From an uncultured Candidatus Saccharibacteria bacterium (GTDB lineage: Bacteria; Patescibacteriota; Minisyncoccia; Phycocordibacterales; Zambryskibacteraceae), in NCBI GenBank assembly GCA_964582295.1, contig CAZOQP010000001.1:9588-73587 (forward strand): a stretch of DNA of 64,000 nt. The letters are read 5' to 3'. The position numbers and the translations under genes were made by a program. Below are positions 44,191 through 59,471 of the stretch, piece after piece. Positions within the stretch are counted from its first letter, which is position 1. Every line of letters starts with the position of its first letter. The notes under the pieces were generated by a model. The model did no database searches. It was not told the origin of the DNA and worked only from the letters and a program-made list of their open reading frames with translations.

Positions 44191-44193
44191 TCT

Positions 44194-45468
44194 TTAGTAT
44201 TCTCGAGCGGTAATCTGCGCGCCCAATTTTTTCACAACATCAAGAATAACTGAAACCACAATAAGGAGTGCTGTACCACCGATAGCAAGCGCTTGGAAGC
44301 CGGTCAAAGCTCGCATAACGAGAGGAAGGACAGCGATAACGCCGAGGAAGAGAGCACCAATGAGAGTGAGGCGGGTCAAGATCTTTGCAACATATTCGGA
44401 TGTGGACTGGCCCGGGCGAACTCCGGGAATGAATGCCCCGTTTTTCTGCAAATTATTAGCCATCTGATCTGGATCAAATGTAACGGCAGTGTAAAAATAT
44501 GTGAACAAAAAGATGAGAATGAAATAAGAGACGCCGTAGAACCACTGATTAGCAAGGATAATGGTACCTGTCGCAGCTATCTGCCTTATCACTTCATTTC
44601 CTGCGGTGGACAAGAAGTTGAGGATCATTTGAGGGAAAAGGAGTATGGAAAGAGCAAAGATAATTGGAATAACTCCCGCCTGGTTGATGCGAATAGGAAG
44701 ATAGGTGGACAAGCCGCCATAGACACGGTTGCCTCTCACTCTTTTTGCATAAGTTACTGGAATGGGCCGCTCGGCTTCTGTTACTACCACCACTCCGAGA
44801 ATAACTGCCACGGATGCCACCAGGAAAGCCGCGTACACAGGGATCTGTGCTGGAGTGAAGGAGATAAGAAGCTGGCCCAAGCTCTGAGGCAGAGCAGCCA
44901 CGATTCCAGCAAAGATGATGAGGGAAACACCGGAACCCACGCCGTATTCGGAAATAAGCTCTCCCAGCCACATAAGAAGAATTGAACCAGCTGTGATGAT
45001 AGCCACGTTCAGGAACATTGCTCCAGCCCCAAGCGGCTCAAGCGCACCTTGGCGGGTGAGGAGGGTAAGAAAGGCAACTCCCTGAAGGACTGCCAAAGGC
45101 ACCGTGAGTAAACGTGAATACTGTGCAAAGCGCTTGCGCCCTGCATCCCCTTCTTCCTGCATCATGGCCTTGAGTTTCGGGAAGATGATGGTCATGAGCT
45201 GCATGATGATGGAGCCGGTAATGTAAGGGCCGACGCCCAACATGATTATTGAAAGATTGGAAAGACCACCGCCTGTGAAAATGTTCAAAAGACCCAGGAA
45301 CTGGTTCTGAGCAAAGAATTCCGCCAGGCGCGAAGGATCAACACCCGGAATAGGAATGACCGAAAGCACCCGGAAAATGAACAAGATAGCGAGAACGAAA
45401 AAGATGCGCTTGCGCATCACGCTGTCTTCAAAAAGGAGTTTCAGCTTTTGGACAAATTCGTTCAACAT
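44194..45468 (-). CDS. secY: preprotein translocase subunit SecY
   Basis: 424 aa with 10 TM segments. Follows rplO. Confidence 0.95.
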   Translation of the reverse strand: MLNEFVQKLKLLFEDSVMRKRIFFVLAILFIFRVLSVIPIPGVDPSRLAEFFAQNQFLGLLNIFTGGGLSNLSIIMLGVGPYITGSIIMQLMTIIFPKLKAMMQEEGDAGRKRFAQYSRLLTVPLAVLQGVAFLTLLTRQGALEPLGAGAMFLNVAIITAGSILLMWLGELISEYGVGSGVSLIIFAGIVAALPQSLGQLLISFTPAQIPVYAAFLVASVAVILGVVVVTEAERPIPVTYAKRVRGNRVYGGLSTYLPIRINQAGVIPIIFALSILLFPQMILNFLSTAGNEVIRQIAATGTIILANQWFYGVSYFILIFLFTYFYTAVTFDPDQMANNLQKNGAFIPGVRPGQSTSEYVAKILTRLTLIGALFLGVIAVLPLVMRALTGFQALAIGGTALLIVVSVILDVVKKLGAQITAREY

Positions 45469-45472
45469 ATGC

Positions 45473-45901
45473 TTATGCTCTCACAGAACCGCCGGCCTTT
45501 TCAATGGCCTCTTTCGCTGAGGCAGAGACCTGGATGCCTTTGAGCACGAGGGCGGAGGAAAGAGTGCCGGTGCCAAGGATTTTCACACGCGGGTACATGT
45601 TACCTGTTTTTTTGATAAGACCTTTCATTTCAAGAGTGCGAGTGGTAACTTCTCCTTTCGGCATTTTCTCAAGAGTTGAAAGCGGAAGGGAAACCACACG
45701 CTTCTGAATGGTGTTGTTAAAATAGCCGCGGAGCTTAGGGAGCTTCTTGATGATATCTCGTTCCTCCGGACGCTTTTTGCGGCCTGAGCGGGCATTCTGG
45801 CCTTTAGTGCCACGACCTGCCGTTTTACCGCGCTTACCTCCGCGTCCTACGGTGCGGGACTTCAGGCGCTTGGTTTTTCTTTTTATAGTATTTAATCGCA
45901 T
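45473..45901 (-). CDS. rplO: 50S ribosomal protein L15
   Basis: 142 aa, Gly/Lys-rich. Confidence 0.9.
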   Translation of the reverse strand: MRLNTIKRKTKRLKSRTVGRGGKRGKTAGRGTKGQNARSGRKKRPEERDIIKKLPKLRGYFNNTIQKRVVSLPLSTLEKMPKGEVTTRTLEMKGLIKKTGNMYPRVKILGTGTLSSALVLKGIQVSASAKEAIEKAGGSVRA

Positions 45902-45916
45902 GGGAGTATTTGAAAA

Positions 45917-46603
45917 CTATTTTTTGGAAACTCTTTGAGCACCGGAAAGAAGGGACAACGCTTTAAGTGTGGCCTTTGAGATATTCAAAGCATTCTTTGA
46001 ACCGGAAAGGATCTTTGCATTCACTTCTTTGATGCCGGCAAGCTCAAGCACGATACGGGTCGCGGAGCCCGCAAGAATACCTCGGCCCGGAGCTGGCATT
46101 ATCTTCACGCGTGCGCTTGAATATTTAGCCGAAGTTTCGTGGGGAATGCGCATAGCTTTGGTGAGCTCCACTGTCATCAGATGCTTCTTCGCATTCCTTA
46201 CGGCCTTTTCAATGGCAATAGGGGTGTCACCCGCCTTTCCCTGTCCGATACCGACCATACCTTTTCTATTTCCTACCGCAACGATAGCGGAGAAAGAGAA
46301 GCGGCGGCCGCCAGCGACAGTACGGGACACGCGACGGATAGTGATAAGACGATGATCAAATTCGCTCTTAGGGCGGTCGTCGCGCCTGTCTTTCCTTCCA
46401 CGGCGAGGGCCGCCACGCGCACCACCTCGTGCTCCCCTTTTATCTCTCATGTCAGGAGTGAACTGCTTATCAGCCGCCGCAACAGGAGCCATAGGTGCCG
46501 CCGGCACTGGAACATCTGCAACAGGAGCTTCAGCAACTTCAATTGCTTCAGTAGCTACTGTAGTTTCTTCTGTATCTCCAATTATTTTTGTTTCGTCAGA
46601 CAT
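45917..46603 (-). CDS. rpsE: 30S ribosomal protein S5 (long N-terminal RGG/Pro-rich extension)
   Basis: S5 dsRBD and C-terminal domain (RVSRTVAGGRRFSFSAIVAVGNRKGMVGIGQGKA). 228 aa. Confidence 0.9.
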   Translation of the reverse strand: MSDETKIIGDTEETTVATEAIEVAEAPVADVPVPAAPMAPVAAADKQFTPDMRDKRGARGGARGGPRRGRKDRRDDRPKSEFDHRLITIRRVSRTVAGGRRFSFSAIVAVGNRKGMVGIGQGKAGDTPIAIEKAVRNAKKHLMTVELTKAMRIPHETSAKYSSARVKIMPAPGRGILAGSATRIVLELAGIKEVNAKILSGSKNALNISKATLKALSLLSGAQRVSKK

Positions 46604-46608
46604 GATAT

Positions 46609-46962
46609 TTAAAATGTAAGCCCGCCCTCACGTGCACCATTAGCGAATGCCTCTACCTGGCCAGTGTAAATGAAGCCGCCGCGGTCAAAAACAACCGCTT
46701 TAATACCCTTCGCAATAGCCGCTTTGGCCAAGGCATTGCCCGCCATGGCCGCGCGCTCCGTCTCATTTTTACCCTTTACGCCCTTGGTGGTAGCGGAAGC
46801 GATAGTTACTCCTGCCATATCATCTATTATCTGCGCCCAGAAAAAACGGTTGGATTTGTATATGGAAAGACGAGGACGTAAGGATGTACCAGCCACTTTG
46901 GAGCGGATGCGCGCATGGCGCCTCGTTCTCTGTGTTTGTTTTTTCTGTGAAAGGGATTTCAT
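46609..46962 (-). CDS. rplR: 50S ribosomal protein L18
   Basis: 117 aa. Confidence 0.9.
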   Translation of the reverse strand: MKSLSQKKQTQRTRRHARIRSKVAGTSLRPRLSIYKSNRFFWAQIIDDMAGVTIASATTKGVKGKNETERAAMAGNALAKAAIAKGIKAVVFDRGGFIYTGQVEAFANGAREGGLTF

Positions 46963-46981
46963 GTTTTTCTCTTTTTGGTTT

Positions 46982-47515
46982 TTACACCGATTTCTTGCCC
47001 TGCTTTCGCTTGATGACCTCGTCCGAATAACGGAAGCCCTTTCCTTTGTATGGCTCAGGCTTCTTTAGGTCACGCACGCGGGCAGCGAATTCGCCCACGG
47101 TTTCCTTATCGCTTCCGGTTATTGTCATGGTTCCCTTTTCGATCGCGACCTCAATTCCTTTCGGGATCGGCACCAAAACAGGATGGGAAAAACCCAGGGC
47201 AAGGTGAAGCGTATCATCTTTAACTTCCATCTTGTAGCCGATGCCTTCAAGAATAAGAACTTTTTTGAATTTATCATTTACACCATTCACCATGTTCCTT
47301 GTATGGGAAGCCACAGTGCCTACGAGGGACTTGGTTTCCAAATTCATAACTTTGGGTTTGAAGGAAACCGAATCACCTTCTAGGATTATCTCTATCAAAG
47401 GATTGAGAGGGCGCGATAGTTCTCCTTTGGGGCCTTTCACAGACAAAGTATTATCCGCAACCGTGAGAGTGGTGCCAGATGGAAGCTTTATTCCTTTTTT
47501 TGCGAGACGTGACAT
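46982..47515 (-). CDS. rplF: 50S ribosomal protein L6
   Basis: 177 aa. Confidence 0.9.
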   Translation of the reverse strand: MSRLAKKGIKLPSGTTLTVADNTLSVKGPKGELSRPLNPLIEIILEGDSVSFKPKVMNLETKSLVGTVASHTRNMVNGVNDKFKKVLILEGIGYKMEVKDDTLHLALGFSHPVLVPIPKGIEVAIEKGTMTITGSDKETVGEFAARVRDLKKPEPYKGKGFRYSDEVIKRKQGKKSV

Positions 47516-47542
47516 ATATTTATTTATAGTGAAATTTTTGAA

Positions 47543-47941
47543 CTACCAAATAGTGAAAAGAGCTTCGCCGCCGACCTTTTCTTTACGGGCTTCCATGTCT
47601 GTCATGAGGCCTTTAGGCGTTGAGATGACCATCATTCCGTAGCCGTTCTTTACCGGGCGCATATCGCGGGCAGATTTATACACACGGCGGGAAAGCTTTG
47701 AAACACGCTCTGCTCCGCGGATGCGAGGGCGGGAGCCGACATATGAAAGGGATACGTCAATGTAGCGAGGAATCTTACTTTCTTTGTTCTCACGGGCGGC
47801 CACAGCGGAGATGAAACCGCTCTTTTCCAAAAGATTGAGGATCTCAAGATTGAGGCGCGAATATGGCATAGAAACAGACGCCTTCTCTACGGCTCCTGCA
47901 TTTTTCAAACGTATTAGCATGTCTGCGATCTTGTCGTTCAT
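47543..47941 (-). CDS. rpsH: 30S ribosomal protein S8
   Basis: 132 aa. Confidence 0.9.
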   Translation of the reverse strand: MNDKIADMLIRLKNAGAVEKASVSMPYSRLNLEILNLLEKSGFISAVAARENKESKIPRYIDVSLSYVGSRPRIRGAERVSKLSRRVYKSARDMRPVKNGYGMMVISTPKGLMTDMEARKEKVGGEALFTIW

Positions 47942-47953
47942 TTTATTTAAAAT

Positions 47954-48139
47954 TTACCAGGATGATTTCTTTATACCGGGGATCTTTCCCTCATTGGCAA
48001 GCTCACGGAAGCAGATACGGCAGAGATCGAAATCCCTCATATAGCCGCGCTTGCGTCCGCAACGGAAACAACGGCGAACCGCCCGAGTGGAAAACTTGGG
48101 GGTTTTAAGCGACCTTGCTACAACTGATTTTTTAGCCAT
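47954..48139 (-). CDS. rpsN: 30S ribosomal protein S14 type Z (zinc-binding)
   Basis: 61 aa from the internal Met ([12 protein letters not shown]...[25 protein letters not shown]) with a CxxC...CxxC motif. Confidence 0.88.
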
Positions 48140-48265
48140 TGTTTCTAAGTTTCTAAACAAAAAAAGCTCCAAAAAGCTTCGGCTCATCCTAGCAGGGAGA
48201 GGTATCCCTGTCAACGGCTCAACCGGCTGGTTGAGCCGTCTAAAACGGCCTGGTTGAGCGGCTTT

Positions 48266-48799
48266 TTATTTCTTGAACGGAATCCCTAAAAGAGATAGGA
48301 AAGCCAGGGCTTCTTCCTTGGTCCTGGATGTGGTCACTACCGTAATGGCCATGCCGAAAACATCCTTCAATTCTTCGTCCGAGGTCTCCGGGAAAATAGT
48401 GTGCTCTTTTATTCCCATAGTGAGGTTGCCCATTTCATCTACTGCAGAAGTAGAGACGCCACGGAAGTCTTTTGTGCGGGGAAGTGCGATATGAATAAGC
48501 TTCTCAAGAAAATCATGGGCGCGGGTGCCGCGAAGAGTTACCTGAAGTCCCACGATATCTCCCTGCCTTGTCTTGAAGGTTGCGATGGACTGCTTTGCAC
48601 CACGCTCCGCAGCTTTCTGACCAGTTATCTTTGCAAGGCGATCTGCCGCCAGTTCTATCTTCTTTTTATCTTTAAAAGAGCCCACGCCCGCTGAAACCAC
48701 CACTTTGGATATCTTGGGTGTTTGCATTACGTTCTTATAGCCGAAATCCCCTTTCAGCTTTTCAAATACCTTTTTCTGATGTTCTTTTATGGTGATCAT
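48266..48799 (-). CDS. rplE: 50S ribosomal protein L5
   Basis: 177 aa. Confidence 0.9.
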   Translation of the reverse strand: MITIKEHQKKVFEKLKGDFGYKNVMQTPKISKVVVSAGVGSFKDKKKIELAADRLAKITGQKAAERGAKQSIATFKTRQGDIVGLQVTLRGTRAHDFLEKLIHIALPRTKDFRGVSTSAVDEMGNLTMGIKEHTIFPETSDEELKDVFGMAITVVTTSRTKEEALAFLSLLGIPFKK

Positions 48800-48807
48800 G
48801 GAAATAT

Positions 48808-49116
48808 TTAGGATATCTTGGCTCCGCTCTTCACGGCAGTGCGAACTTTCTTGCCTTTTTCAAAAGTGAAGCGCACACGCGTCGGCTTTTTTGTCTTCGG
48901 GTCAACGATCATGACGTTTGAAACCTGAACAGGCATGGCCTTCTCTATCTTCTGGCCTTTCTGGATGTTCTTGCCGGCGCGCTTGTGAACGATGCGCATG
49001 TTCACCCCCTCCACCAGAATTTTTCCGTCGCGCGGGAAAGACTTAACAACGGTGCCTGTTTTGCCCTTGTCCTTTCCGGAAATTATTATTACGTTGTCGC
49101 CTTTGCGGATTTTCAT
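48808..49116 (-). CDS. rplX: 50S ribosomal protein L24
   Basis: 102 aa with a KOW motif. Confidence 0.9.
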   Translation of the reverse strand: MKIRKGDNVIIISGKDKGKTGTVVKSFPRDGKILVEGVNMRIVHKRAGKNIQKGQKIEKAMPVQVSNVMIVDPKTKKPTRVRFTFEKGKKVRTAVKSGAKIS

Positions 49117-49120
49117 GTTT

Positions 49121-49492
49121 TTATACGACCTCGGGTGCGAGGGAAATTATTTTCTGGAAGCCCATTTCACCGAGCTCGCGTGGAATTGGTCCGAAAACAC
49201 GCCCCGCGATGGGCTCGTGCTTGGCTTTATCTACGAGGATAACGGCATTCTCGTCAAAGCGGATGTATGAGCCGTCTGCACGGCGAGTGGCCACTTTGGA
49301 GCGAGCCACGACACCGTAAACAACATCCTTCTTTTTCACCGGCTTTCTCGGCTCAGCTTTCTGGATGGAAAGCACCACCAGGTCCCCTATCTTTGCATAG
49401 CGCTTCTTGGAACTTCCTAGCACCTTGAAAATTCGGCCTATCTTGGCGCCTGAATTGTCTGCTATTTTCACTATGGAGCGGGGCTGTATCAT
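49121..49492 (-). CDS. rplN: 50S ribosomal protein L14
   Basis: 123 aa (MIQPRSIVKIADNSGAK). Confidence 0.92.
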   Translation of the reverse strand: MIQPRSIVKIADNSGAKIGRIFKVLGSSKKRYAKIGDLVVLSIQKAEPRKPVKKKDVVYGVVARSKVATRRADGSYIRFDENAVILVDKAKHEPIAGRVFGPIPRELGEMGFQKIISLAPEVV

Positions 49493-49496
49493 TGGA

Positions 49497-49736
49497 TTAA
49501 GAGACTACCACGAAGTGCTTATCTTTGGAAATCGGCCTTGATTCAATAATTTCCACTTTGTCGCCCACCGCTTTGGTGTTACCAGGGTCATGGGCTTTGT
49601 ATTTCTTGTCGCTTGAAATGTATTTTCCGTAGCGCGGATGCTTGCGGAAACTTTTCACGGAAACGACCACGGTATCCTTCATTTTGTTGGAGACCACTAC
49701 GCCTGCGAGTATTCTTTTTTTTGTATTTTTTTCCAT
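49497..49736 (-). CDS. rpsQ: 30S ribosomal protein S17
   Basis: 79 aa. Confidence 0.9.
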   Translation of the reverse strand: MEKNTKKRILAGVVVSNKMKDTVVVSVKSFRKHPRYGKYISSDKKYKAHDPGNTKAVGDKVEIIESRPISKDKHFVVVS

Positions 49737-49742
49737 ATATTT

Positions 49743-49934
49743 TTATTCCGCTTTCTTCATTCTCTTGTTGATCTCCGTCATAAGGCGTGCTATTTCCAGG
49801 CGATGAGTGCGGCCTTCACGCACGTTCCTGGTTTTTGAACCTTCCACTGCAAAACGGAACGAGCGAAGCGCCTCGCGCTTGTCGCGGAGATCTTTTATCA
49901 GGTCCTCATTGGTTTTTTTGGAAAAATCAGCCAT
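49743..49934 (-). CDS. rpmC: 50S ribosomal protein L29
   Basis: 63 aa. Confidence 0.88.
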   Translation of the reverse strand: MADFSKKTNEDLIKDLRDKREALRSFRFAVEGSKTRNVREGRTHRLEIARLMTEINKRMKKAE

Positions 49935-49939
49935 ATATT

Positions 49940-50359
49940 TTAGTGTCTCTCAACTATCTTGGTTTTCAAAGGAAGTTTAGTACCCCCTTTGCGCAAAGCT
50001 TCGCGCGCGATCTCCGGAGTTACTCCATCCACTTCAAAAATGATGCGCCCCGCGAGAACTGGCACCTGGTAGCCCGCGAGATCGCCCTTGCCTTTGCCCA
50101 TCTTCACCTCCGCCGGCTTCTGGGTGTAAGGCATGTCTGGGAAAACACGGATCCAGACCTTGCCGGTCTTACCAACTGCGCGCGAGATAGCTTTGCGGGC
50201 CGCCTCTATCTGATTTGATCTCACACGGTGAGGCGCCTGGGCTTTAAGACCGAACTGTCCGAAGGAGACTTCGGTTCCGCGAGTGGCCGGCCCCACCCTT
50301 TTTGGGTTGCGGCGCATAGTGTGCCATTTTCTGAATTTTACTTTTTTGGGGACTAACAT
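49940..50359 (-). CDS. rplP: 50S ribosomal protein L16
   Basis: 139 aa (MLVPKKVKFRKWH). Confidence 0.92.
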   Translation of the reverse strand: MLVPKKVKFRKWHTMRRNPKRVGPATRGTEVSFGQFGLKAQAPHRVRSNQIEAARKAISRAVGKTGKVWIRVFPDMPYTQKPAEVKMGKGKGDLAGYQVPVLAGRIIFEVDGVTPEIAREALRKGGTKLPLKTKIVERH

Positions 50360-50364
50360 GTTTT

Positions 50365-51033
50365 TTATGCTCCTTTTTTCTCAGCGAAAACTTCGCCTTT
50401 GTATATCCAAACTTTGATGCCGATGTGCCCGTACGGAAGCTTGGCTTCGTAATGAGCATAGTCGATATCCGCACGCATCGTCTGCAAAGGAATACGACCA
50501 AGCTTCCTTGTTTCCGAGCGGGCGATTGAAGAACCCGCCAGGCGTCCTGCTGCGGTTATCTTTACCCCCTTCACTTCCCGGTTGGCCATCACTTTCTCCA
50601 CCATCTGCTTCTGCACACGGCGGTAAGGCAAACGTTTTTCCAATCCTTCAGCAACCATCTGCGCCACTATCATGGCGTTTGATTCAGGAGATTTTATCTC
50701 GCGGATATCAAGCTTCACATCAATATTTCCCAAAAGGTCGCGAGATTTCAAAAGCTTCACTATCTCCTCTTTAAACTTGGTAGCTCCGTCTCCTTGGCGG
50801 CCAATAATAAGACCCGGGCGCGATGTTTCAATAATGACACGCATGGTTTTCTCGCCGCGCTCTATCTGAACATCGGCCACATACATTCCGCGCAATTTTT
50901 TCCCTATGAAATCACGTATCAGAAGATCGCCTCGGAGCATCCCCTGGAATTTTCCTTTCGGCGCGAACCAGCGGGACTTCCAATCCCTGATGATGCCTAA
51001 CCTATGTGAATATGGATGGACGGTATGCGACAT
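50365..51033 (-). CDS. rpsC: 30S ribosomal protein S3
   Basis: 222 aa with a KH domain. Confidence 0.92.
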   Translation of the reverse strand: MSHTVHPYSHRLGIIRDWKSRWFAPKGKFQGMLRGDLLIRDFIGKKLRGMYVADVQIERGEKTMRVIIETSRPGLIIGRQGDGATKFKEEIVKLLKSRDLLGNIDVKLDIREIKSPESNAMIVAQMVAEGLEKRLPYRRVQKQMVEKVMANREVKGVKITAAGRLAGSSIARSETRKLGRIPLQTMRADIDYAHYEAKLPYGHIGIKVWIYKGEVFAEKKGA

Positions 51034-51037
51034 GGTA

Positions 51038-51415
51038 TTAGCTTTTTTCCTCTAACTTTAATTTCTTGGTTTTTTTCTTTGGAGCACCGGTTGAAAGCAC
51101 GATGGTGATATGGCTTGAGCGGCGGCGCACCGGGTGAGCAGCTCCGCGGGAAGCCGGGCGGAAACGCTTTATCATGCCGCCATTGTCCACGCGCATTTCT
51201 TTTATGAAAAGATCGTCTTCAGCAAGACCCAGAGCGCGAGCATTTGAAATAGCGGATGAAATTAGCTTTCTCAAAGGCAAAGCGGGGCGCTTCACGGCAA
51301 AATCCAAAAGAGTGAGGGCTTCTTCTACTCTTTTTCCCTGAACAAGCTTGGCAACTATCCTGGTCTTTCGAGGAGTCTGCCTGTAGCCCTTAAGATATGC
51401 CGTTGCTTGTGCCAT
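51038..51415 (-). CDS. rplV: 50S ribosomal protein L22
   Basis: 125 aa. Confidence 0.9.
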   Translation of the reverse strand: MAQATAYLKGYRQTPRKTRIVAKLVQGKRVEEALTLLDFAVKRPALPLRKLISSAISNARALGLAEDDLFIKEMRVDNGGMIKRFRPASRGAAHPVRRRSSHITIVLSTGAPKKKTKKLKLEEKS

Positions 51416-51418
51416 GGT

Positions 51419-51766
51419 TTATTTTTTTACTGCTTCAGCCGGAGCTGCCTTGGATGCCTGGGCGGAAGCTATTTCAGCTTCCTTTTTCTTGGTTTCCAGT
51501 TCCTTCTGCATCTTTCCTCCGTGCTTTATGAATTTGCGGGTGGGAGAGAATTCGCCCAAGCGGTGACCCACCATATCTTCCGTAACGAAAACCTCAATGT
51601 GTTCCCGGCCGTTATGGACCCCAAAGGTGTGCCCCACCATCTCCGGAGCTATCTGGCTGTCTCTTGCCCAGGTCTTTATCACTCCGGCAGAGCCGGGCTT
51701 TTTACCCTCAATCTTCTTGAGGAGTTTTTCATATACATAGGGTCCTTTTGAGGATGAACGTGTCAT
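51419..51766 (-). CDS. rpsS: 30S ribosomal protein S19 (C-terminal Lys/Ala-rich extension)
   Basis: S19 core ([13 protein letters not shown]...[35 protein letters not shown]). 115 aa. Confidence 0.9.
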
Positions 51767-51826
51767 TTTTGACAGAAAAAAGCTCGTCAGAGCTTGGCGA
51801 AATATTATATGAATAGGAGCATAGTG

Positions 51827-52714
51827 TCAACGGGTAGGTCTATTCCTAAAAACGGAGATTTTCTCCTTCAATTTATACGCATTCCCATGTCTCAATAGCC
51901 CCAGATAAGACTGCACCGTTTCCGCCTTAACATCACCATTTTCGAGATTTTTCATCATCCTTCGCTTGGTAGTGGTTCTCAATACGCGATAATCATGAAA
52001 ATGCACCCAGCCCAGGAAATCCACACCTGAAGCCAAGGTTTTAATGAATACCTTGTCCGGATGAAGAGTGAGTTTAAGCTTCTCTCCTAGATAACATACG
52101 ATATATCGTATGTTATCTAGGAGGTTTCCTTTGTCATGGTGGAGTATTACGAAATCATCTGCATAGCGTATGTAGTGTTTTACTTTGAGCGTGTGCTTCA
52201 TGTATTGATCAAACTCGTTCATGTAGACATTTACCAGAAGCTGGGAGGTGAGGTTCCCGAGGGGCAGTCCAATGCCAGAAGCAGTGCTTGAGAAGCTTCC
52301 TATGACCTTTTGGAGAAGCCACATGGTGTCCTCATCTTTTATATGCTTGTTCAGGATTTCAATGAGTATTGAATGATCAATTGATGCGAAAAACTTGCGC
52401 ACATCGCATTTCAATATAAAACATGTGCGTGTCCTGTTGTTTGAAACTTTATATGAAAATCTTTTAAATCTCTCCATCGCCTTGTGGGTGCCTTTAAAGT
52501 TCCGGCAGGAATAGGAATCGTGTATGAATCTTTTGTCAAAGTACGGATACAAAACCCTGTATATGGCGTGGTGGAGCAGTCTGTCCCTCACGCTCGCCTT
52601 GTGGATATTCCTCGGCTTGGGGTCCGAAATGTTGAAAGCTGAATATCCTCCATGTGTATATGTTTTTCCGGCCAAATCCTGATGCAAAGAGAGTATGTTG
52701 TCCATGAGCCGCAA
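51827..52714 (-). CDS. diversity-generating retroelement reverse transcriptase
   Basis: 295 aa. RT motifs 1-7 with IRYADDFVIL (motif 5) and the DGR-specific motif 4 variant LGNLTSQ (I/LGxxxSQ, in place of QGxxxSP). No maturase or endonuclease domain. Confidence 0.85.
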   Translation of the reverse strand: MRLMDNILSLHQDLAGKTYTHGGYSAFNISDPKPRNIHKASVRDRLLHHAIYRVLYPYFDKRFIHDSYSCRNFKGTHKAMERFKRFSYKVSNNRTRTCFILKCDVRKFFASIDHSILIEILNKHIKDEDTMWLLQKVIGSFSSTASGIGLPLGNLTSQLLVNVYMNEFDQYMKHTLKVKHYIRYADDFVILHHDKGNLLDNIRYIVCYLGEKLKLTLHPDKVFIKTLASGVDFLGWVHFHDYRVLRTTTKRRMMKNLENGDVKAETVQSYLGLLRHGNAYKLKEKISVFRNRPTR

Positions 52715-52826
52715 GCCAAACTCCTGAACATCCTTTCTGTTCCGCTTGCCTCTTAAAAATTCCCTCCACGCTTCAAGGAGATTGTCTAAAGAAATGATAT
52801 CGTTATAGGTATGAGAAAACTCCCCT

Positions 52827-53213
52827 TTGAAGTCCCCCCCCCCCGCAGATTTCAGTAGTCATCTTATTCCTGTAATCATAAAGCTTAAAGACCTATATGG
52901 CCTATGGCAAGGATATTTGGCACACTTTCCGAAGTCAAAACGTTTTACACTCGGTTCCAAGCTTGATGACCTATTTTTGAGCGCCATTGAAAATTGCTTT
53001 TTAGCTAGTTACTCTTCAGGTGAAGAAAAGAACACATATGTTGACCGCTCAATCTCACGAGTGGATCTCATAAAATTATTACTTCAACTTGCATGGGAAA
53101 CTAGAGTCCTTGATACGAACAAATATTCTCATTTATCCGAAAATCTATCAGAGGTTGGGAAAATGCTTGGTGGATGGAAAAGACAACTGACAAGAAAAAC
53201 TCCCCCGCGGTGA
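52827..53213 (+). CDS. Avd-like four-helix-bundle protein (IVS-encoded protein family, DGR accessory variability determinant homolog)
   Basis: 128 aa with a TTG start. The sequence pattern ...FPKSKRFTLGSKLDDLFLSAIENCFLASYS...RVDLIKLLLQLAWETRVLD... is typical of four-helix-bundle/IVS proteins. It sits 23 bp from the TR but on the opposite strand to RT, TR and VR. Confidence 0.7.
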   Translation: MKSPPPADFSSHLIPVIIKLKDLYGLWQGYLAHFPKSKRFTLGSKLDDLFLSAIENCFLASYSSGEEKNTYVDRSISRVDLIKLLLQLAWETRVLDTNKYSHLSENLSEVGKMLGGWKRQLTRKTPPR

Positions 53214-53236
53214 TACGGGGGAGAACCATAATAGTG

Positions 53237-53365
53237 GCGCACGGCGAGGAACCGGCAACGCTCATCCCACTCGTTGTCGTTCCAGTTCAGATTGAGCTTG
53301 CGCTTAGAATCGTTCACGTCGAGATACGGAACGTTGCGATTGTCGTCCAACTGCGAGACGGAGCC
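53237..53365 (-). repeat. DGR template repeat (TR), 129 bp
   Basis: Near-identical to 53706-53834. All 14 mismatches have A in this copy (minus-strand sense) and G or T in the other. Confidence 0.85.
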
Positions 53366-53612
53366 TTGTACGACAAACCATCCATACCACCACCCATTGA
53401 ATAATCCCCGGGTTGAATCTTATTCGTGACCTTTGTGTCACATAGTTTGTCGCACCAACTTTCTCTGGTTTTTACCAAACCCGGAAACTCTCTTTCGGAA
53501 GCCGTGGCCGCCGAAACTCTCATTACTCGGGCGTGCGAACAAGTTACCCAAAGCCGTAACCGTAGGTTTTTCACTTGTCTCAATTATTGTATAGAAAAAA
53601 TTTACATATGAA

Positions 53613-53642
53613 AACTCCGTCGGACAGCTGTCCGACGGAGTT
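53613..53642 (-). terminator. 30-bp perfect palindrome AACTCCGTCGGACAG|CTGTCCGACGGAGTT + T-rich tract, 3' of the VR gene
   Basis: About 60 nt downstream of the VR end. It could also be the hairpin/cruciform element that follows DGR VRs (IMH-associated). Confidence 0.6.
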
Positions 53643-53700
53643 GTTTCCAAAGCCCAAGTACCAAGGCCAAAAACGAAGCCAAAGCTCAAGGGCCCAAGTA

Positions 53701-54309
53701 CTACTTGCGCACGGCGAGGAACCGGCAACGCTCACCCCACTCGTCGTCGCTCCAGTCCAGACTGAGCCCGCGCTCAGAATCGTCCACGTCGAGAAACGGA
53801 ACGTCGCGAAAGTCGCCCAACTGCGAGACGGAGCCGAGAGCGATAATGGGAAATCTCCGTTGAACCTCCGGAAATGTTGCTCCGAAAGCCAGAAGTTCCT
53901 CCATGGTAGCCGGGCGCATTCCCATCTTGTCGATTTCTTTCTTCACTTCATCGGTCGCAATAACACGATTTAAGTGAATGAGTTCGACGGTGGTCTCCAC
54001 CTTACCCTTACCCTTTACAGGGAAGCGCTCAGTGGTAATATCATCGTTTTTCCAATCGTACCGGCCGGATGCGATCATCTCCGCGAGCGTCATGGAATAA
54101 TCCACGACGACTTTGAGAACGAGCGGGCCCAGGCCGAGGAAATCCCGAAGCTCCCCGCGGGGTTTGTTGAAACCCGTCGCGAGAGCTTCCAGAAAATCCG
54201 GCAGGATGCCGTCGGAGACCGCTACCGCCAACTGTTCCTTGCTCACCCCTTTCTGGTCAATGAGGGTAAGGATGTGTCCCGCCTGCGGCAGTGTTGCGTT
54301 GGTGCTCAT
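53701..54309 (-). CDS. DGR variable (target) protein, VR at C-terminus
   Basis: 202 aa with no signal peptide or TM helix. The last ~43 codons are the VR (...VSQLGDFRDVPFLDVDDSERGLSLDWSDDEWGERCRFLAVRK). The TR encodes the Asn-rich template version (DDNRNVPYLDVNDSKRKLNLNWNDNEWDERCRFLAVR). Confidence 0.8.
   Translation of the reverse strand: MSTNATLPQAGHILTLIDQKGVSKEQLAVAVSDGILPDFLEALATGFNKPRGELRDFLGLGPLVLKVVVDYSMTLAEMIASGRYDWKNDDITTERFPVKGKGKVETTVELIHLNRVIATDEVKKEIDKMGMRPATMEELLAFGATFPEVQRRFPIIALGSVSQLGDFRDVPFLDVDDSERGLSLDWSDDEWGERCRFLAVRK
53706..53834 (-). repeat. DGR variable repeat (VR)
   Basis: 129 bp matching the TR except at 14 TR-adenine positions (11 A-to-G, 3 A-to-T). Confidence 0.85.
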
Positions 54310-54520
54310 AGGGTTCTCCTATGTGGCGCTACCTTTAGGGTAGCTGGTTCGCTAAATGTGCGACCTTAGTGTCGCCATAGCTTTTAATCCTCCATCTTGA
54401 AGAGCTAAAAGCTATGGCGAACAAGTAGTTCTTAAGGTTCTTTATCTTTTTCCATTATACACCTATTGACATATTTTGTCAAGTACTTCTTGGGTACCAA
54501 AAAATAGCCCTTTGTTGAGC

Positions 54521-55227
54521 TGTTTTTTACATAGGCAAGACCTATGTATAATTAAGATATGGCAATTAGAGAAATCTCCTTTGCTCCTGGATGCTATTAT
54601 CACATTTACAATCGAGGTAATAGCAAGCAGAAAATATTTCTTGATAAGAACGACTATCACCGTTTCATTAAGCTCCTTTATATTTCAAACTCACGGCAAA
54701 ACTTTGCCATCAGAAACTTTTCCAAGAAAAATATATACGACGTTGATCGCGGACAGAAACTGGTATCCATGGGAGCTTTTTGTTTAATGTCAAATCATTT
54801 CCACATTCTTTTATGCCAGCCGGAGAATGGCGACATCAGCAAGTTCATGCAAAAATTGAGCACATCTTACTCGATGTATTTTAATAAGAAATATGAACGG
54901 ACTGGCGGACTGTTTGAGAGTAAGTTCAAATCTGAATATGTAGAGACCGATCGTCATCTGAAATACCTATTTTCTTACATACACCTCAATCCATTAAAGA
55001 TCGTTGACCCGAAATGGAGAGAAAAAAGTGGGAATGATTTATCGGGGTCAATGAAATTCTTGGAAAATTACAATTTTTCTAGCTTTGATGAGTACATTGG
55101 GAAATCCCGTATTGAACAAGTTATTTTGGATAGACAGGATTTTCCAGAGTATTTCCCAGCCGAAAAAATATTTTTAGAAGAAATTACTGAATGGATTAAC
55201 TTTACATAGGCAAGACCTATGTAAGTC
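54521..55227 (+). mobile_element. IS200/IS605-family Y1 (HUH) transposase gene of RAYT/TnpA-REP type, flanked by identical subterminal hairpins
   Basis: CDS 54559..55209 (216 aa) with HIYNRGN...LMSNHFHILL (HUH) and a downstream Tyr region (YSMYFNKKYERTGGLFESKFKS). Both ends carry TTACATAGG-caaga-CCTATGTAA (54521-54547 and 55201-55227). Confidence 0.75.
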
Positions 55228-55229
55228 TG

Positions 55230-56069
55230 CTACTTTTTCCCTACCTTCCTTCGCTTCACTATGTAAACGTTTGAGTATTTCTTGGCACGGCGGGACTTCT
55301 GGCCCTTACCTGTCGGCTTGCCGTGGCGAGTGCGGGCACGACGGTGACCTCGGCCGGAGCGGCCTTCGCCTCCTCCGTGCGGATGGTCAACAGGGTTCAT
55401 GGCAGAACCACGAACGGTAGGGCGGATACCAAGCCAGCGAGAGCGTCCGGCTTTGCCGAGGTTCATCAGGCGATTTTCTGAATTGGAAACTTCTCCGACG
55501 CTTGCCCATGCATTGCTGTGTATCTTTCGCACTTCAGTTGAAGGCATTTTTATATCAACATATTCCCCGTCTTTTGCTACTACTTCCGCATAGTTTCCTC
55601 CGGAGCGAGCTACTTTCGCCTCTCCACCTTTTTTAAGCGAGATGTTGTACACAAAAGTTCCAACGGTCAGGCGGTGGAGAGGAAGACGGTTACCAGGAAT
55701 TTCCGCGGCGGTTTCTGAAGTTACAAAAGTGTCGCCAACCTTTGCTGATTTAGGCAGGAGAACGTAGCGCTTTGCGCCATCGTGGTAAAAGACGAGACCA
55801 ATGTAGCCAGAGCGGTTCGGATCGTACTCAACGCTCTTCACCACATAAGGAATATCGAATTTGTCGTATGAAAAATCAATGTCTCGGAAAAGGCGCTTGT
55901 GGCCACCACCCTTGTGCTGAACGGTAATGCGTCCGTGATGGTTGCGACCCTTATGGCGCTTGCGGCCAAAGGTGAGTTTTTTTGCAGGCTCAGAGGCAGT
56001 GGTTACCTCCTTGTACGGCAAAACCGTCATGTGCCTGCGGGATTTAGTTGTAGGTTTAAAACTTTTCAT
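55230..56069 (-). CDS. rplB: 50S ribosomal protein L2
   Basis: 279 aa. Confidence 0.93.
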   Translation of the reverse strand: MKSFKPTTKSRRHMTVLPYKEVTTASEPAKKLTFGRKRHKGRNHHGRITVQHKGGGHKRLFRDIDFSYDKFDIPYVVKSVEYDPNRSGYIGLVFYHDGAKRYVLLPKSAKVGDTFVTSETAAEIPGNRLPLHRLTVGTFVYNISLKKGGEAKVARSGGNYAEVVAKDGEYVDIKMPSTEVRKIHSNAWASVGEVSNSENRLMNLGKAGRSRWLGIRPTVRGSAMNPVDHPHGGGEGRSGRGHRRARTRHGKPTGKGQKSRRAKKYSNVYIVKRRKVGKK

Positions 56070-56071
56070 TT

Positions 56072-56389
56072 TTATACGAGTTTGAGGGTATCACCTTTTT
56101 TCAAAAACACATAAGCCTTTTTTCCGCGCGCCGTTCTGCCCCTCTTGTTCCTCACTGTCACATTTTTGGCCGGAATGCTTACCATATTTACGCGAACCGG
56201 CTTCACTTTGTACTGAGCGGCTATTGCCTGAGCAACTTCTTTTTTAGTAGCGGAAAGGGGCACATTGAAAACATGAACATTTCTTGAAGAAAGAAGGGAT
56301 GCCTTTTCCGTGATGCGCGGAGTCTTCAGGATAAAGATTTTTCTTCCTTCCTGAAGCGCGGTCCTGTTTTGTATTTTTGAAGTAGCCAT
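56072..56389 (-). CDS. rplW: 50S ribosomal protein L23
   Basis: 105 aa. Confidence 0.9.
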   Translation of the reverse strand: MATSKIQNRTALQEGRKIFILKTPRITEKASLLSSRNVHVFNVPLSATKKEVAQAIAAQYKVKPVRVNMVSIPAKNVTVRNKRGRTARGKKAYVFLKKGDTLKLV

Positions 56390-56392
56390 AAA

Positions 56393-57136
56393 TTATTTTG
56401 CGGCAGACTTACGAGCTTTCACTGTGCGCTTCTTTTTCTCAGGAGCTGCACTGTCTGTCGATTCAGAGCTAACTTTGCCGCCCATCTTTGCTTCCAGTAT
56501 GGAAAAAGTTTTCTCCGGGTCAACGAATACGAGGTATTTTGCCTTGAGAGCGGAAACAACATCCAAATTCCTAGTCTCCCCTATGGAAAGATTGCCGATA
56601 TTCCTGAGGGCTCTCTCGGTCATTTCGTTCTTCACCGGCAAAAGAACATAAGCGGCATTCTCTCTTTTGTTGCGAAGAGCAGAAGCGCGGGCACCAGTTG
56701 AAAGTGCATGCACCATGGCGATACCTTCTTTGGTTTTACCTGCCAAAGAAAAATCCTCTGTGAAAATAATTTCCTTATCCTTCACTTTTCCTGAAAGCAC
56801 AGCTACGAGTGCCGCTGTCCTCATTTTGCGATTCACTTTTCGGAAGAAATTCTTGTCGTTGCGCGGGCCGTGAGCTACACCTCCTCCAACCCATATAGGT
56901 GAGCGAGTGGAACCATGACGTGCGCGGCCTGTACCTTTCTGCTTCCAAGGCTTTTTTCCGCCTCCTCTTACCTCGCCTCGGGTTTTAGTGTGAGCGATGG
57001 CACTACGTGCGGAAGACATCATGGAACGCACCACCTGCTCCACCAAGTCGGCATTTTTCTTTACGCCGAAAAACTTGGATGGGAGTTCCACCTCACGTGA
57101 TTTCTTTCCTTCTTTTGTAAATACGTCCGCGTTCAT
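56393..57136 (-). CDS. rplD: 50S ribosomal protein L4
   Basis: 247 aa. Confidence 0.9.
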   Translation of the reverse strand: MNADVFTKEGKKSREVELPSKFFGVKKNADLVEQVVRSMMSSARSAIAHTKTRGEVRGGGKKPWKQKGTGRARHGSTRSPIWVGGGVAHGPRNDKNFFRKVNRKMRTAALVAVLSGKVKDKEIIFTEDFSLAGKTKEGIAMVHALSTGARASALRNKRENAAYVLLPVKNEMTERALRNIGNLSIGETRNLDVVSALKAKYLVFVDPEKTFSILEAKMGGKVSSESTDSAAPEKKKRTVKARKSAAK

Positions 57137-57144
57137 TTTATATT

Positions 57145-57831
57145 TTAAGATTTCTTGCTCAGGATCTTGACGAGAGTTCCTCTGCGTCCCGGCACGGCTC
57201 CTGCAAGAAGTATTTCGTTCGCTTCGGGAAGGACTTGAAGAACTTTCAGGTTATCAACCGTGACAATGGTGCCTCCCATGCGGCCGGCCATCCTTTTACC
57301 TTTAGGCACTTTGGTGCGAAGCCCGCCTCCAATAGAGCCCGGCTCACGTTCCGAGTGCTTCTGGCCGTGAGAGCGCGGGCCGCCGTGGAAGCCGTGGCGC
57401 CTTACAACACCCTGAAAGCCTTTGCCTTTAGAGGTTGCTGTGACGCGCACTATATCTCCGACCGAGAAAGTGGAAACATCAAGTGATGCACCTCTTTCAA
57501 GACCGAGCGACTCACCTGTTTTAGAGCGGAACTCGCGGAGAACTTTGAAATTTCCAAGTTCCTTTGTGTGGCCTTTGAGCGCCTTTGAGATCCTTTTTTC
57601 TTTACGCGTACCCGCACCTACCTGCACAGCCTCATATCCGTCCGAGGAAGAATTTTTCACCTGGGTTACCACCACCGGTGTAACAGAGATGATGGTGGCA
57701 GCATGAACACGGCCTTCTTCGTCGAAGACCTGTGTCATTTCTTTTTTTTCTCCAAGAATAAATTTCATATAAGTTTCTAAGTTCAAAAAGTTCCGCTCGC
57801 TTTGCGAGTTTATAAGTTCTATAAGTTTCAA
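57145..57831 (-). CDS. rplC: 50S ribosomal protein L3
   Basis: 228 aa. Confidence 0.9.
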   Translation of the reverse strand: MKLIELINSQSERNFLNLETYMKFILGEKKEMTQVFDEEGRVHAATIISVTPVVVTQVKNSSSDGYEAVQVGAGTRKEKRISKALKGHTKELGNFKVLREFRSKTGESLGLERGASLDVSTFSVGDIVRVTATSKGKGFQGVVRRHGFHGGPRSHGQKHSEREPGSIGGGLRTKVPKGKRMAGRMGGTIVTVDNLKVLQVLPEANEILLAGAVPGRRGTLVKILSKKS

Positions 57832-57854
57832 ACTTACCTAACTTATTTAACTTC

Positions 57855-58235
57855 CTAAACTATTTTCACGTCTATCATCACGCCCGAGGGCAGAGAAAGA
57901 TTAGTGAGTGATTCGATGAGCTTCGGTGTAGGGTTCAGAATATCTATCAATCGCTTGTGTATCCTCATCTCAAATTGCTCTCGCGCGTTTTTGTAGACGA
58001 AGGCCGAGCGGTTGACAGTGTATTTCTTGAACTCTGTCGGAAGAGGGATAGGACCATGCACTACTGCATCGTAGCGCTCGGCTGTATCTATGATCTGCTT
58101 CACCGAAAGGTCAAGAATCTTGTTCTCGTAAGCCCGCACTCTTATGCGCAGGCGCGAGATAGCCGGTTCTTCCTTCTTTTTGGAAGGTTTCTTGGCTTTC
58201 TCTTCCGTGTTGGTTTTTTTTGTTGACGATGCCAT
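57855..58235 (-). CDS. rpsJ: 30S ribosomal protein S10 (N-terminal Lys-rich extension)
   Basis: S10 core (RIRVRAYENKILD...). 126 aa. Confidence 0.9.
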   Translation of the reverse strand: MASSTKKTNTEEKAKKPSKKKEEPAISRLRIRVRAYENKILDLSVKQIIDTAERYDAVVHGPIPLPTEFKKYTVNRSAFVYKNAREQFEMRIHKRLIDILNPTPKLIESLTNLSLPSGVMIDVKIV

Positions 58236-58271
58236 GTAAGGAACTTTGATTTCGGTCGGGTCCTCTAGAGC

Positions 58272-59471
58272 TTAGGCAACTATTTTTGTTACCACGCCTG
58301 CACCCACCGTTTTGCCTCCTTCACGGATGGCGAAACGCATTTTATCTTCAATAGCAACTGGCGCCACGAGCTTCACTTTGAAAGTCACAGTGTCTCCAGG
58401 CATTACCATTTCAACACCTTCAGCCAAAGTAACTTCGCCTGTTACATCCGTGGTGCGGATGTAGAACTGCGGCTTGTAGCCAGTGAAGAACGGAGTGTGG
58501 CGGCCTCCCTCTTCTTTCTTGAGGATGTACACTTCCGCCTCAAAATCAGTATGAGGTTTAACAGAGCCTGTCTTTGCAAGCACCTGGCCGCGAGTGAGGT
58601 CTTCCTTGCGGGTACCGCGAAGAAGAATACCTGCGTTGTCTCCCGCCTGACCCTGCTGAAGCGATTTGTTGAACATTTCAATTCCGGTCACAGTTGTCTT
58701 GGCGGTGTCCTTAAGGCCAACGATCTCTATTTCATCACCTACCTTGAGAGTACCGCGCTCGATCCTTCCGGTTGCCACTGTGCCTCGGCCTTCAATAGAG
58801 AAGATGTCTTCGATAGGCATGAGGAACGGCTTGTCCAATTCACGCTCCGGGATCGGAATGTAGCTGTCCAAGGTGTTTACAAGCTCAAGAATTTTCTTTG
58901 CCCACTCGTCGTCATTCGTTGATGCTTCAAGGGCTTTAAGTCCTGAACCGCGGATGATAGGAGCATTCGCACCGTCGTAATTCTGCTTGGTCAAAAGCTC
59001 GCGCACTTCCTCTTCCACGAGGTCGATAAGTTCCTGATCAGGAACCATGTCGCACTTGTTTAGGAAGACGATGACTTTCGGCACACCCACCTGGCGGGCG
59101 AGCAGAATGTGCTCACGTGTCTGCGGCATCACGCCGTCCGTAGCTGCCACCACAAGGATAGCGCCGTCCATCTGAGCCGCACCAGTGATCATGTTCTTGA
59201 TGTAGTCGGCGTGGCCTGGAGCATCGATGTGAGCATAGTGCCTGTTCGGCGTCTCATACTCGTTGTGGGAAAGGGCGATAGTAATACCGCGGGCCTTTTC
59301 CTCAGGAGCCTTGTCAATGCCGTCAATGCCAACAACCTTAGCGGAGTAGCCATCTCCTTGGCGGTTCAAAACCGAAAGAATAGCCGCCGTAAGGGTGGTT
59401 TTGCCGTGGTCAACGTGGCCGATGGTGCCTACGTTCACATGCGGCTTCGAACGATCAAATTCTGCTGCCAT
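58272..59471 (-). CDS. tuf: elongation factor Tu
   Basis: 399 aa with [14 protein letters not shown] and NKCD GTPase motifs. Confidence 0.97.

Follow-up and report, generated by a model that had tools for sequence, protein, structure and literature searches.

Does the S10 ribosomal protein operon of an uncultured Candidatus Saccharibacteria bacterium tolerate a mobile insertion in its middle, or does the insertion occupy a place where the operon is already divided? The question is raised by a 64,000-nucleotide stretch of contig CAZOQP010000001.1 (assembly GCA_964582295.1; the window), in which open reading frames (ORFs) and Pfam matches give the minus-strand gene order tuf, rpsJ, rplC, rplD, rplW, rplB, insert, rpsS, rplV, rpsC, and on to secY. 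The junction between rplB and rpsS measures 3,463 nt (51767-55229); most other junctions of the cluster in the window measure 5 to 39 nt, with rplE-rpsZ (129 nt) as the sole exception. The insert consists of a Y1/IS200-like gene between two hairpins and a full diversity-generating retroelement (DGR), i.e., a target gene with its variable repeat (VR), a template repeat (TR), the accessory gene avd, and a reverse transcriptase (RT) gene. The Y1 gene and avd lie on the plus strand, opposite to the ribosomal operon. We consider it highly probable that the locus reflects a clade-wide two-unit S10 cluster, whose permissive spacer here holds a Y1 element together with a complete DGR of the type found in the candidate phyla radiation (CPR). 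The canonical operon, with rplB directly followed by rpsS in one unit, is not what the window contains, as the 3,463-nt gap is furnished with terminator-like and promoter-like elements. The two genes that bound it are as follows.

55230..56069, minus strand: rplB, last gene of the upstream ribosomal unit (ORF; Pfam Ribosomal_L2_N and Ribosomal_L2_C).
51419..51766, minus strand: rpsS, first gene of the downstream unit, rpsS-rplV-rpsC to secY (ORF; Pfam S19, 2.3e-33).

The nearest relatives were collected by a scan with the L2 protein, keeping one genome per species. Those used for synteny were Patescibacteria labelled Kaiserbacteria, Zambryskiibacteriota, Paceibacterota, or Minisyncoccia, with L2 identities of 59 to 71%. 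Both genes were visible in 15 of them; in 5 further relatives, either the contig ended at or near rplB or rpsS was absent from the downstream sequence on hand (approximately 1 to 7 kb). The gap between rplB and rpsS was 138 to 4,431 nt in all 15 genomes, whereas 6 to 40 nt is typical of other phyla and of CPR lineages further removed. The remaining cluster junctions of the same relatives were mostly shorter than 150 nt. The contents of the gap differed from genome to genome and included DUF5674 with small unknown ORFs, a MazE/MazF pair, pyrF, pyrE, and pyrD with a diacylglycerol kinase (DagK, found in three genomes overall), a GT2 glycosyltransferase with a polysaccharide deacetylase, and a 1,007-aa PKD/CARDB protein with a second Y1 transposase-like gene. 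A terminator-like GC hairpin with a T-run stood directly 3' of rplB in most of these relatives. None of the sampled relatives carried a DGR at this junction, so this particular cargo is lineage specific. Judged from gene order across the clade, the split of the S10 cluster at rplB-rpsS is ancestral to it.

Two other junctions are recurrently open in the clade. The rplE-rpsZ junction spans 768 to 1,596 nt in four loci (L006, L007, L012, and L017) and holds a whole DGR in another (L004), and rpsJ-rplC spans 802 to 1,406 nt in L005, L011, L014, and L022.

The region immediately upstream of rpsS provides the second line of evidence and contains two features.

51802..51830, minus strand: native promoter-like site of rpsS, TTGACA-17-TAATAT (alternatively TTGACA-15-TATAAT).
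51780..51795, minus strand: rpsS leader hairpin, AAGCTC-tgac-GAGCTT with a T-run (TTTTC), approximately 6 nt past the -10 box and 13 nt before the rpsS ATG.

The stop codon of the RT gene (TGA) is part of the -35 hexamer of this site. In at least 10 relatives, a TTGAC(A/T)-16/17-TA(G/A)TAT site occurs at the same relative position before rpsS. Hairpins were detected in each sequence individually; a MAFFT alignment of the rpsS leaders set the hairpin arms out of register. Of 16 sequences, 9 had a hairpin with a T-run 11 to 30 nt ahead of the rpsS start codon, approximately 6 nt past the promoter and with at least four different stem sequences. The stem is often AGCTC/GAGCT, and other complementary sequences replace it in L011, L014, L017, and L019. 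The hairpin of the window is weak on its own (-6.8 kcal/mol, z = -1.0), with 31 of 200 shuffled sequences folding as well, and its significance therefore derives solely from its conservation in relatives. The promoter-hairpin-U-run module is present at 51780-51830 in the window and in L005, L011 to L014, and L016 to L020. Because the window carries the same module as its relatives, the hairpin is to be seen as the native leader of rpsS and not as a terminator of the insert. Neither an Rfam scan of positions 50000-57000, with E values as high as 1 accepted, nor one of the entire window at the gathering threshold returned a known ribosomal leader or DGR RNA. The module is a candidate ribosomal protein leader or attenuator absent from Rfam, with a 5' stabilizer and an attenuator as the candidate roles.

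A sequence-only reading of the window had described this locus as a rarely tolerated break in a universally conserved operon and had expected related genomes to show rplB immediately followed by rpsS. No relative with both genes visible does so, and that description is not supported. The same reading had named an ancestral arrangement, shared by relatives, as what would overturn it; relatives do share the split, and they do not share the DGR. Its identification and ordering of the elements (IS200-like gene, target, TR, avd, RT) agree with the ORF, Pfam, and repeat evidence; the opposite strand of the Y1 gene and avd goes unmentioned in it. Its suggestion of a separate promoter for rpsS is matched by the TTGACA-17-TAATAT site (51830..51802). 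It had also located the hairpin correctly (51795..51780), although the terminator role that it proposed gives way to that of a native rpsS leader. Accordingly, the placement of the DGR and the Y1 element appears, from these comparisons, to be tolerated rather than disruptive.

The DGR occupies most of the spacer. Its parts, in the direction of transcription of the target gene, are the following.

54454..54482, minus strand: promoter-like site of the target gene, TTGACA-17-TATAAT, a perfect 12/12 consensus match.
54372..54420, minus strand: 15-bp stem-loop in the 5' leader of the target gene (-30 kcal/mol, z = -7.6).
53701..54309, minus strand: DGR target gene, 202 aa, with an N-terminal helical part and a C-terminal C-type-lectin-like (CLec) domain.
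53699..53846, minus strand: VR, covering the last 49 codons (3' end) of the target gene.
53613..53642, minus strand: perfect 15-bp GC-rich hairpin with a U-run, 57 nt past the VR (-25 kcal/mol, z = -6.9).
53377..53612, minus strand: conserved, non-coding stretch ahead of the TR (leader); promoter-like site at 53614..53586.
53229..53376, minus strand: TR, the 148-nt repeat partner of the VR.
53200..53223, minus strand: 9-bp GC hairpin with a T-run, directly 3' of the TR and overlapping the 3' end of avd (-18.2 kcal/mol, z = -4.0).
52811..53213, plus strand: avd (ORF 52827-53213 as assembled), on the opposite strand to the TR and RT.
51827..52862, minus strand: RT (ORF 51827-52714, frame open to 52862), RVT_1 match at 7.5e-21, motifs LGNLTSQ and YADD.
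52084..52123, unstranded: 40-nt perfect palindrome within the RT coding sequence (-28.7 kcal/mol, z = -9.7).

The VR and TR are 85% identical over 148 nt. Their 14 mismatches comprise 11 A>G and 3 A>T changes, every one at an adenine of the TR, as is characteristic of the template and variable repeats of a DGR. The last 27 nt of the VR before the point of divergence are identical to the TR, resembling the initiation of mutagenic homing (IMH) sequence. The VR columns are variable in a homolog alignment, and no second VR or remote target was found within the window. The target protein had no Pfam match, no signal peptide evident by eye, and no ribosomal domain; its structural model (predicted local distance difference test score, 90) matched CLec/formylglycine-generating-enzyme-like (FGE-like) folds, including that of TvpA, and the predicted scaffold is the variation-tolerant CLec fold. 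The cut-offs for the family assignments in the insert were 23 bits (Y1_Tnp) and 40 bits (bAvd) for Pfam and 80 bits for each of two NCBIfam equivalogs (RAYT and Avd). Avd was recognized by Pfam bAvd (PF22296; 4e-13, 50 bits, above the cut-off) and by NCBIfam Avd (1e-17, 64 bits, below the equivalog cut-off). The nearest homologs of the RT are in Patescibacteria, where those 60 to 74% identical number more than 8,000. The locus is thus a complete DGR, with an RT, an adenine-confined TR/VR pair, a VR on a CLec target, and Avd all present. Its component order (target-VR, TR, reverse-strand avd, RT) is the B3 architecture, TR-(avd)-RT. By the account of Wu et al. (2018, PMC5758913), 90% of CPR DGRs are built in this way.

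The comparison set for the DGR comprised 80 related metagenomic loci with RTs 60 to 72% identical to that of the window. In these loci, the Avd gene adjoins the RT gene and is divergent from it almost without exception. Non-coding parts recur as well, above all in the closest relatives, L163 and L164. An equivalent TTGACA promoter precedes the target gene in L164 and in L004, the DGR after rplE, and the target leader stem-loop is found in L164 with identical stems and a different loop. Equivalents of the hairpin past the VR occur in L163, L164, and L004, and this hairpin is putatively the terminator of the target gene, a target-recognition hairpin of the DGR, or both. The TR leader (approximately 220 nt) is 72 to 75% identical to positions 720-960 of L163 and 8100-8340 of L164, with apparent compensatory changes, and its TR-adjacent block GATTCAACCC..GGGTGGTGGTATGGATGG recurs in 34 of 58 related loci. 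The only Rfam match near it was a weak one to RT-7 (19 bits), and the leader probably contributes a structured section to the DGR RNA. The hairpin directly past the TR, with equivalents in L004, L163, and L164, is likely both to close the TR RNA at its 3' side and to terminate transcription in the two directions. The perfect palindromy within the RT gene is kept in 12 related RT genes with different arm sequences, around the center CGATATATCG. In L164, an internal frameshift at 9191-9250, near the ..DSYSCR.. motif, splits the RT gene into two ORFs through either decay or sequencing error.

The remainder of the spacer is taken up by the Y1 element.

54526..55223, plus strand: hairpin-Y1-hairpin element, 698 nt, 35% GC.
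54559-55209, plus strand: Y1_Tnp ORF, 216 aa (Pfam PF01797, 41.7 bits).

Identical 23-nt palindromic repeats, TTTACATAGGCAAGACCTATGTA, bracket the Y1 ORF at 54526-54548 and 55201-55223. The second begins 7 nt past the rplB stop codon and holds the stop codon of the Y1 gene. Two copies are all that the 64 kb contain, against 0.02 expected, and no dispersed copies resembling repetitive extragenic palindromes (REPs) were found there. The protein has an HUH motif (HFH) and the tyrosine motif YIHLNP, and it scored 46.2 bits against the NCBIfam RAYT model (NF047646), below the equivalog cut-off. "RAYT/IS200-like" is a fair label for the gene, short of strict membership of either family. The hairpin-gene-hairpin layout recurs in L022, L099, and L115, each with its own palindrome, and the Y1 homolog of L022 sits in the same rplB-rpsS gap, adjoining rpsS. 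The stem TACATAGG-N5-CCTATGTA (54529-54547 and 55204-55222 in the window) also occurs alone in L012 (7863-7881) and L143 (4953-4971). The L012 copy forms the terminator-like hairpin directly 3' of rplB, and the L143 copy follows another gene. This stem may represent a REP-like hairpin family common to CPR genomes.

One further feature of the DGR bears on whether it is expressed at all.

52834..52844, unstranded: C11/G11 homopolymer, within the 52-nt head-to-head overlap of avd and RT.

This tract is the sole homopolymer of at least 8 bases in the window. With 10 residues, avd starts at an ATG at 52811 (MRKLPFEVPPPADF...) and RT starts at an ATG at 52862 (MTTEICGGGDFKGEFSHTYNDIIS...). With the 11 residues assembled, RT lacks any ATG, GTG, or TTG ahead of the conserved domain, and the only start remaining to avd is a TTG at 52827. 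A homopolymer survey of 759 kb of related loci (among L083 to L164) recovered 66 G/C runs of at least 8 bases at the avd/RT junction versus 6 elsewhere. Junction tracts ranged from 6 to 15 residues, with a mode of 9 to 10; (GT)7-10 takes the place of the tract in three loci, and three GGGTGTT repeats do so in one. Full-length homologs carry ...PPP... near the Avd N terminus (as extensions) and ...GGG... near the RT N terminus. Reading frames were tallied for 64 non-duplicate loci. The avd ATG was out of frame as assembled in 46 of them, and 32 of the 64 had no canonical in-frame avd start at all. By our own tally from class counts, 31 loci need -1 nt and 13 need +1 nt for the avd frame to be restored. 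Where RT must also cross the tract, the shift that restores RT was the one that restores avd in 19 of 19 loci, which indicates that both frames are maintained relative to a single ON length. Two loci from different samples (L135 and L136), 99.9% identical over 15.9 kb, have G10 and G9 tracts, respectively; their other differences are clustered in the first approximately 100 nt at a contig end, and in five further near-identical pairs the tract lengths agree. No independent assembly of the tract region came up in an exact look-up of avd, and a search with the G10-frame Avd gave no match above 74% identity. No mention of the avd/RT homopolymer or the RT-internal palindrome was found in the DGR papers searched, nor was literature linking DGRs to simple-sequence repeats, in a search that did not extend to Paul et al. 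(2017), which could describe the tract.

The tract has one property of a phase-variable contingency locus, in that it is a simple-sequence repeat within coding sequence whose length sets the frame. In our estimation, the chances are evenly balanced that the tract, or (GT)n in a few loci, is a built-in slippage switch or throttle of CPR-type DGRs that frames both proteins at once. As a DNA-level contingency switch, it would turn on hypermutation of the target only in a subpopulation through slippage (phase variation), and the present genome would be OFF (G11), with G10 as the ON state. Alternatively, transcriptional slippage or +1 frameshifting on CCC-C/GGG-G could provide constitutive low-level expression, a reading that the bias to one extra G would fit. 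These two readings stand side by side. Systematic homopolymer miscalls are a less likely third, because the tract is reproducible across samples.

Taken together, these observations suggest the following model. In a family-level clade of Patescibacteria (relatives labelled Kaiserbacteria, Zambryskiibacteria, and Paceibacterota), the S10 cluster would ancestrally form two transcription units. The first would run from rpsJ to rplB and be closed by a terminator; the second would start at rpsS from a sigma-70-like promoter of its own, with a short hairpin/U-run leader at its 5' end. The intervening spacer would be a permissive site that gathers unrelated cargo in each genome. Here it would have received a single-copy HUH/Y1 (RAYT/IS200-like) gene between identical hairpins, abutting the rplB stop codon, and, independently of that gene, a complete B3 TR-(avd)-RT DGR. 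In the DGR, the consensus promoter would drive the 202-aa CLec-fold target, whose C-terminal VR is rewritten. A discrete small RNA (conserved leader, TR, and terminator hairpin) would be reverse transcribed by RT-Avd with adenine-specific errors, and the resulting cDNA would take the place of the VR, with the 3' IMH-like segment common to both repeats and the GC hairpin downstream as guides. The avd and RT genes would be transcribed from their own divergent promoters, with their 5' coding ends overlapping across the G/C homopolymer, and RT-Avd expression in this genome would be off or slippage dependent, as G11 leaves RT without an in-frame start. On this model, a typical CPR DGR and a Y1 element occupy a spacer that separates the two units throughout the clade.

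Several points weigh against the model. Its promoters, terminators, and unit boundaries are drawn from consensus matches and conservation only. A canonical terminator was not seen after rplB in the window, where the Y1 hairpin lacks a U-run, and rplB transcripts may continue antisense into the Y1 gene. The closest sampled relative has an L2 identity of only 71%, which leaves the DGR insertion undated. Since RT as assembled has no start codon, the element could be inactive today. Finally, the two assemblies that support the structure of the locus probably derive from one read set.

The possible inactivity of the DGR leads to the alternative that survives best, namely, that it is a decaying, non-functional relic whose RT gene was frameshifted at the homopolymer. 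Consistent with this, the G11 frame offers RT no start before the conserved domain, the deposited RT protein (P0001) is an N-terminally truncated form of 292 aa and the only RT annotated, and the close relative L164 has an internal RT frameshift. However, apart from the tract, the frames of both RT and avd are conserved and open throughout, and the TR, VR, IMH-like segment, and hairpins are intact. Furthermore, the out-of-frame tracts in related loci and the uniform agreement between RT and avd shifts point to a maintained switch and away from random decay. We therefore regard a relic as unlikely. The end of one Logan contig (L002) inside the VR at 53823 is the only hint of ongoing mutagenic retrohoming, through VR heterogeneity.

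A slightly less probable alternative, which we regard as doubtful, is functional coupling, whereby this DGR lineage would prefer ribosomal protein operons for their strong growth-coupled transcription or for ribosome-related diversification. Related DGRs are indeed found after rplE (L004) and immediately before tuf (L120 and L162) or rpsF-ssb-rpsR (L163). In many loci, moreover, a co-oriented host gene follows within 0 to 30 nt of the RT stop codon. Yet among the 25 families listed for 53 immediate downstream neighbors, only S7 and L20 are ribosomal, in addition to S6 in L163. This amounts to approximately 3 of 53 neighbors (6%), near our own estimate of the ribosomal gene share of a CPR genome of approximately 1 Mb. 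S10, spc, or tuf genes occur within 10 kb in 5 of the 80 loci, against about 2 expected by a rough estimate of our own. The other downstream neighbors are diverse housekeeping genes (PolA, SecA, PGK, peptidases, and transketolase are in the set), and the target protein is without a ribosomal domain. An enrichment of this DGR lineage beside ribosomal protein operons was accordingly not accepted. The occurrence of the same cassette at other sites in relatives, including one between rpe and tkt (L164), indicates that the cassette, from target promoter to RT stop, relocates as a unit. In approximately 17 of 59 loci (L083 to L164), a co-oriented host gene starts -3 to +30 nt from the RT stop codon. 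The settings of these cassettes suggest that they are embedded in host operons.

The notion that a recent mobile insertion broke a co-transcribed S10 operon, leaving rpsS dependent on read-through or on an insert-borne promoter and making the hairpin a terminator of the insert, fares worse; synteny largely refutes it, and we judge it improbable. The short rplB-rpsS spacing of most bacteria, the absence of the insert from the site in all sampled relatives, and the low GC content of the Y1 element (35%, versus 49% in the flanking genes) speak for it. On the other side, the gap is already open in every relative measured, and most relatives have both a terminator-like hairpin after rplB and the same promoter-hairpin leader before rpsS. 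As the module is common to relatives, the hairpin and promoter are best understood as host features that predate the insert. In a comparison of composition across the insert, which the sequence-only reading had proposed, the tetranucleotide profile of the insert is no outlier, with 8% of random same-size segments equally distant. Because that profile is ordinary, composition neither dates nor proves an insertion.

The structure of the locus was compared with two Logan contigs from run SRR6868922. One (L001) corresponds to 44072-52113 of the window, from inside RT through rpsS to secY, and the other (L002) to 53823-58835, from inside the VR via the target gene, Y1, and rplB to tuf; both are 100% identical to the window. 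Together they span both contested junctions, which were thus reproduced by a different assembler, and the 3.4-kb insertion described by the sequence-only reading was confirmed in its position between rplB and rpsS. The Logan contigs break at the RT-internal palindrome (52113) and within the VR (53823), both of which are expected break points. An NCBI-deposited contig (216 kb) carries the same target and RT proteins. A chimeric join that placed a DGR contig in the ribosomal cluster is very unlikely, the least probable of the alternatives, because although the TR/VR repeats and the 40-nt palindrome are assembly-breaking sites at which the Logan contigs do break, those contigs cross the RT-rpsS and rplB-Y1-target junctions without a mismatch, the RT stop codon falls within the -35 box of rpsS while the Y1 hairpin begins 7 nt past the rplB stop codon, with no junk sequence between, relatives too hold cargo at the site, and the TR and VR have no 31-mer in common.

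Two observations concern the window outside the insert. A 30-nt palindromic sequence lies at 44060-44089, just past secY, where L001 ends. The Rfam scan at the gathering threshold identified one tmRNA (31344-31725) and four tRNA genes (51-122, 209-279, 25664-25752, and 28381-28454), all unrelated to the insert.

With the two-unit reading of the cluster, what looks like the disruption of a core operon becomes benign, and one clade of Patescibacteria has a permanently split S10 cluster. Accessory genes land in its rplB-rpsS spacer, among them those for a toxin-antitoxin pair, metabolic enzymes, surface proteins, Y1 transposases, and a DGR. This circumstance is of use for genome annotation and marker gene binning, and it helps to explain where very small genomes find room for cargo. 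Of greatest interest, however, is the slippery tract, which may gate Avd and RT. As a restraint on a self-mutating retroelement, such gating, if true, would be a simple mechanism, and metagenomic reads already available could put it to the test. Many CPR DGR genes would then be misannotated at present as truncated or missing.

Compared with the S10 operon of the Escherichia coli type, in which rpsJ to rpsQ form one transcript with an L4-controlled leader, the gene order rpsJ-rplC-rplD-rplW-rplB-rpsS-rplV-rpsC is kept here, whereas the cluster of this clade is broken at rplB-rpsS by a terminator-like element, variable cargo, and a second putative promoter with a leader. The Y1 element resembles RAYT/REP systems and IS200 (IS200/IS605, HUH Y1) in its Y1_Tnp domain, HUH and tyrosine motifs, bracketing palindromic hairpins, and, as for IS200, size of approximately 700 nt. 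It differs from IS200 in that its protein (216 aa) is longer than TnpA, and from RAYT/REP systems in scoring below the NCBIfam RAYT cut-off and in lacking a dispersed REP family within the 64 kb, where only the two flanking copies occur.

The tract at the avd/RT overlap resembles simple-sequence contingency loci (such as those of Campylobacter jejuni, Neisseria, and Haemophilus, with poly-G/C tracts of 8 to 13 residues) and sites of programmed slippage at homopolymers in being a G/C run of 9 to 11 residues in coding sequence, in setting the frame by a length that varies among related loci, and in differing within a pair of near-identical contigs. Unlike those loci, it is a single tract that affects two divergent overlapping genes, on both strands, and would govern a mutagenic retroelement; it is biased to one extra G.

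Like the DGR of Bordetella phage BPP-1 (mtd-avd-TR-brt), this one combines an RT and Avd with a TR/VR pair that shows adenine mutagenesis. The two also have in common a 3' segment of the IMH type, a GC hairpin beyond the VR, and the CLec fold of the variable protein. In contrast to the BPP-1 element, it is chromosomal and not phage borne, and its avd gene is inverted, in a head-to-head overlap with RT. Whereas BPP-1 has an avd-TR-spacer-brt transcript, the TR of the window appears to be transcribed separately, as a small RNA that opens with a conserved leader and closes with a terminator hairpin of its own. The closest likeness in organization is to the B3 DGRs of CPR bacteria (Wu et al. 2018), which have the same component order, a reverse avd between the TR and RT, a small CLec target with a C-terminal VR, and similarly adenine-specific TR/VR differences, and from which the DGR described here differs by its location in the rplB-rpsS spacer.

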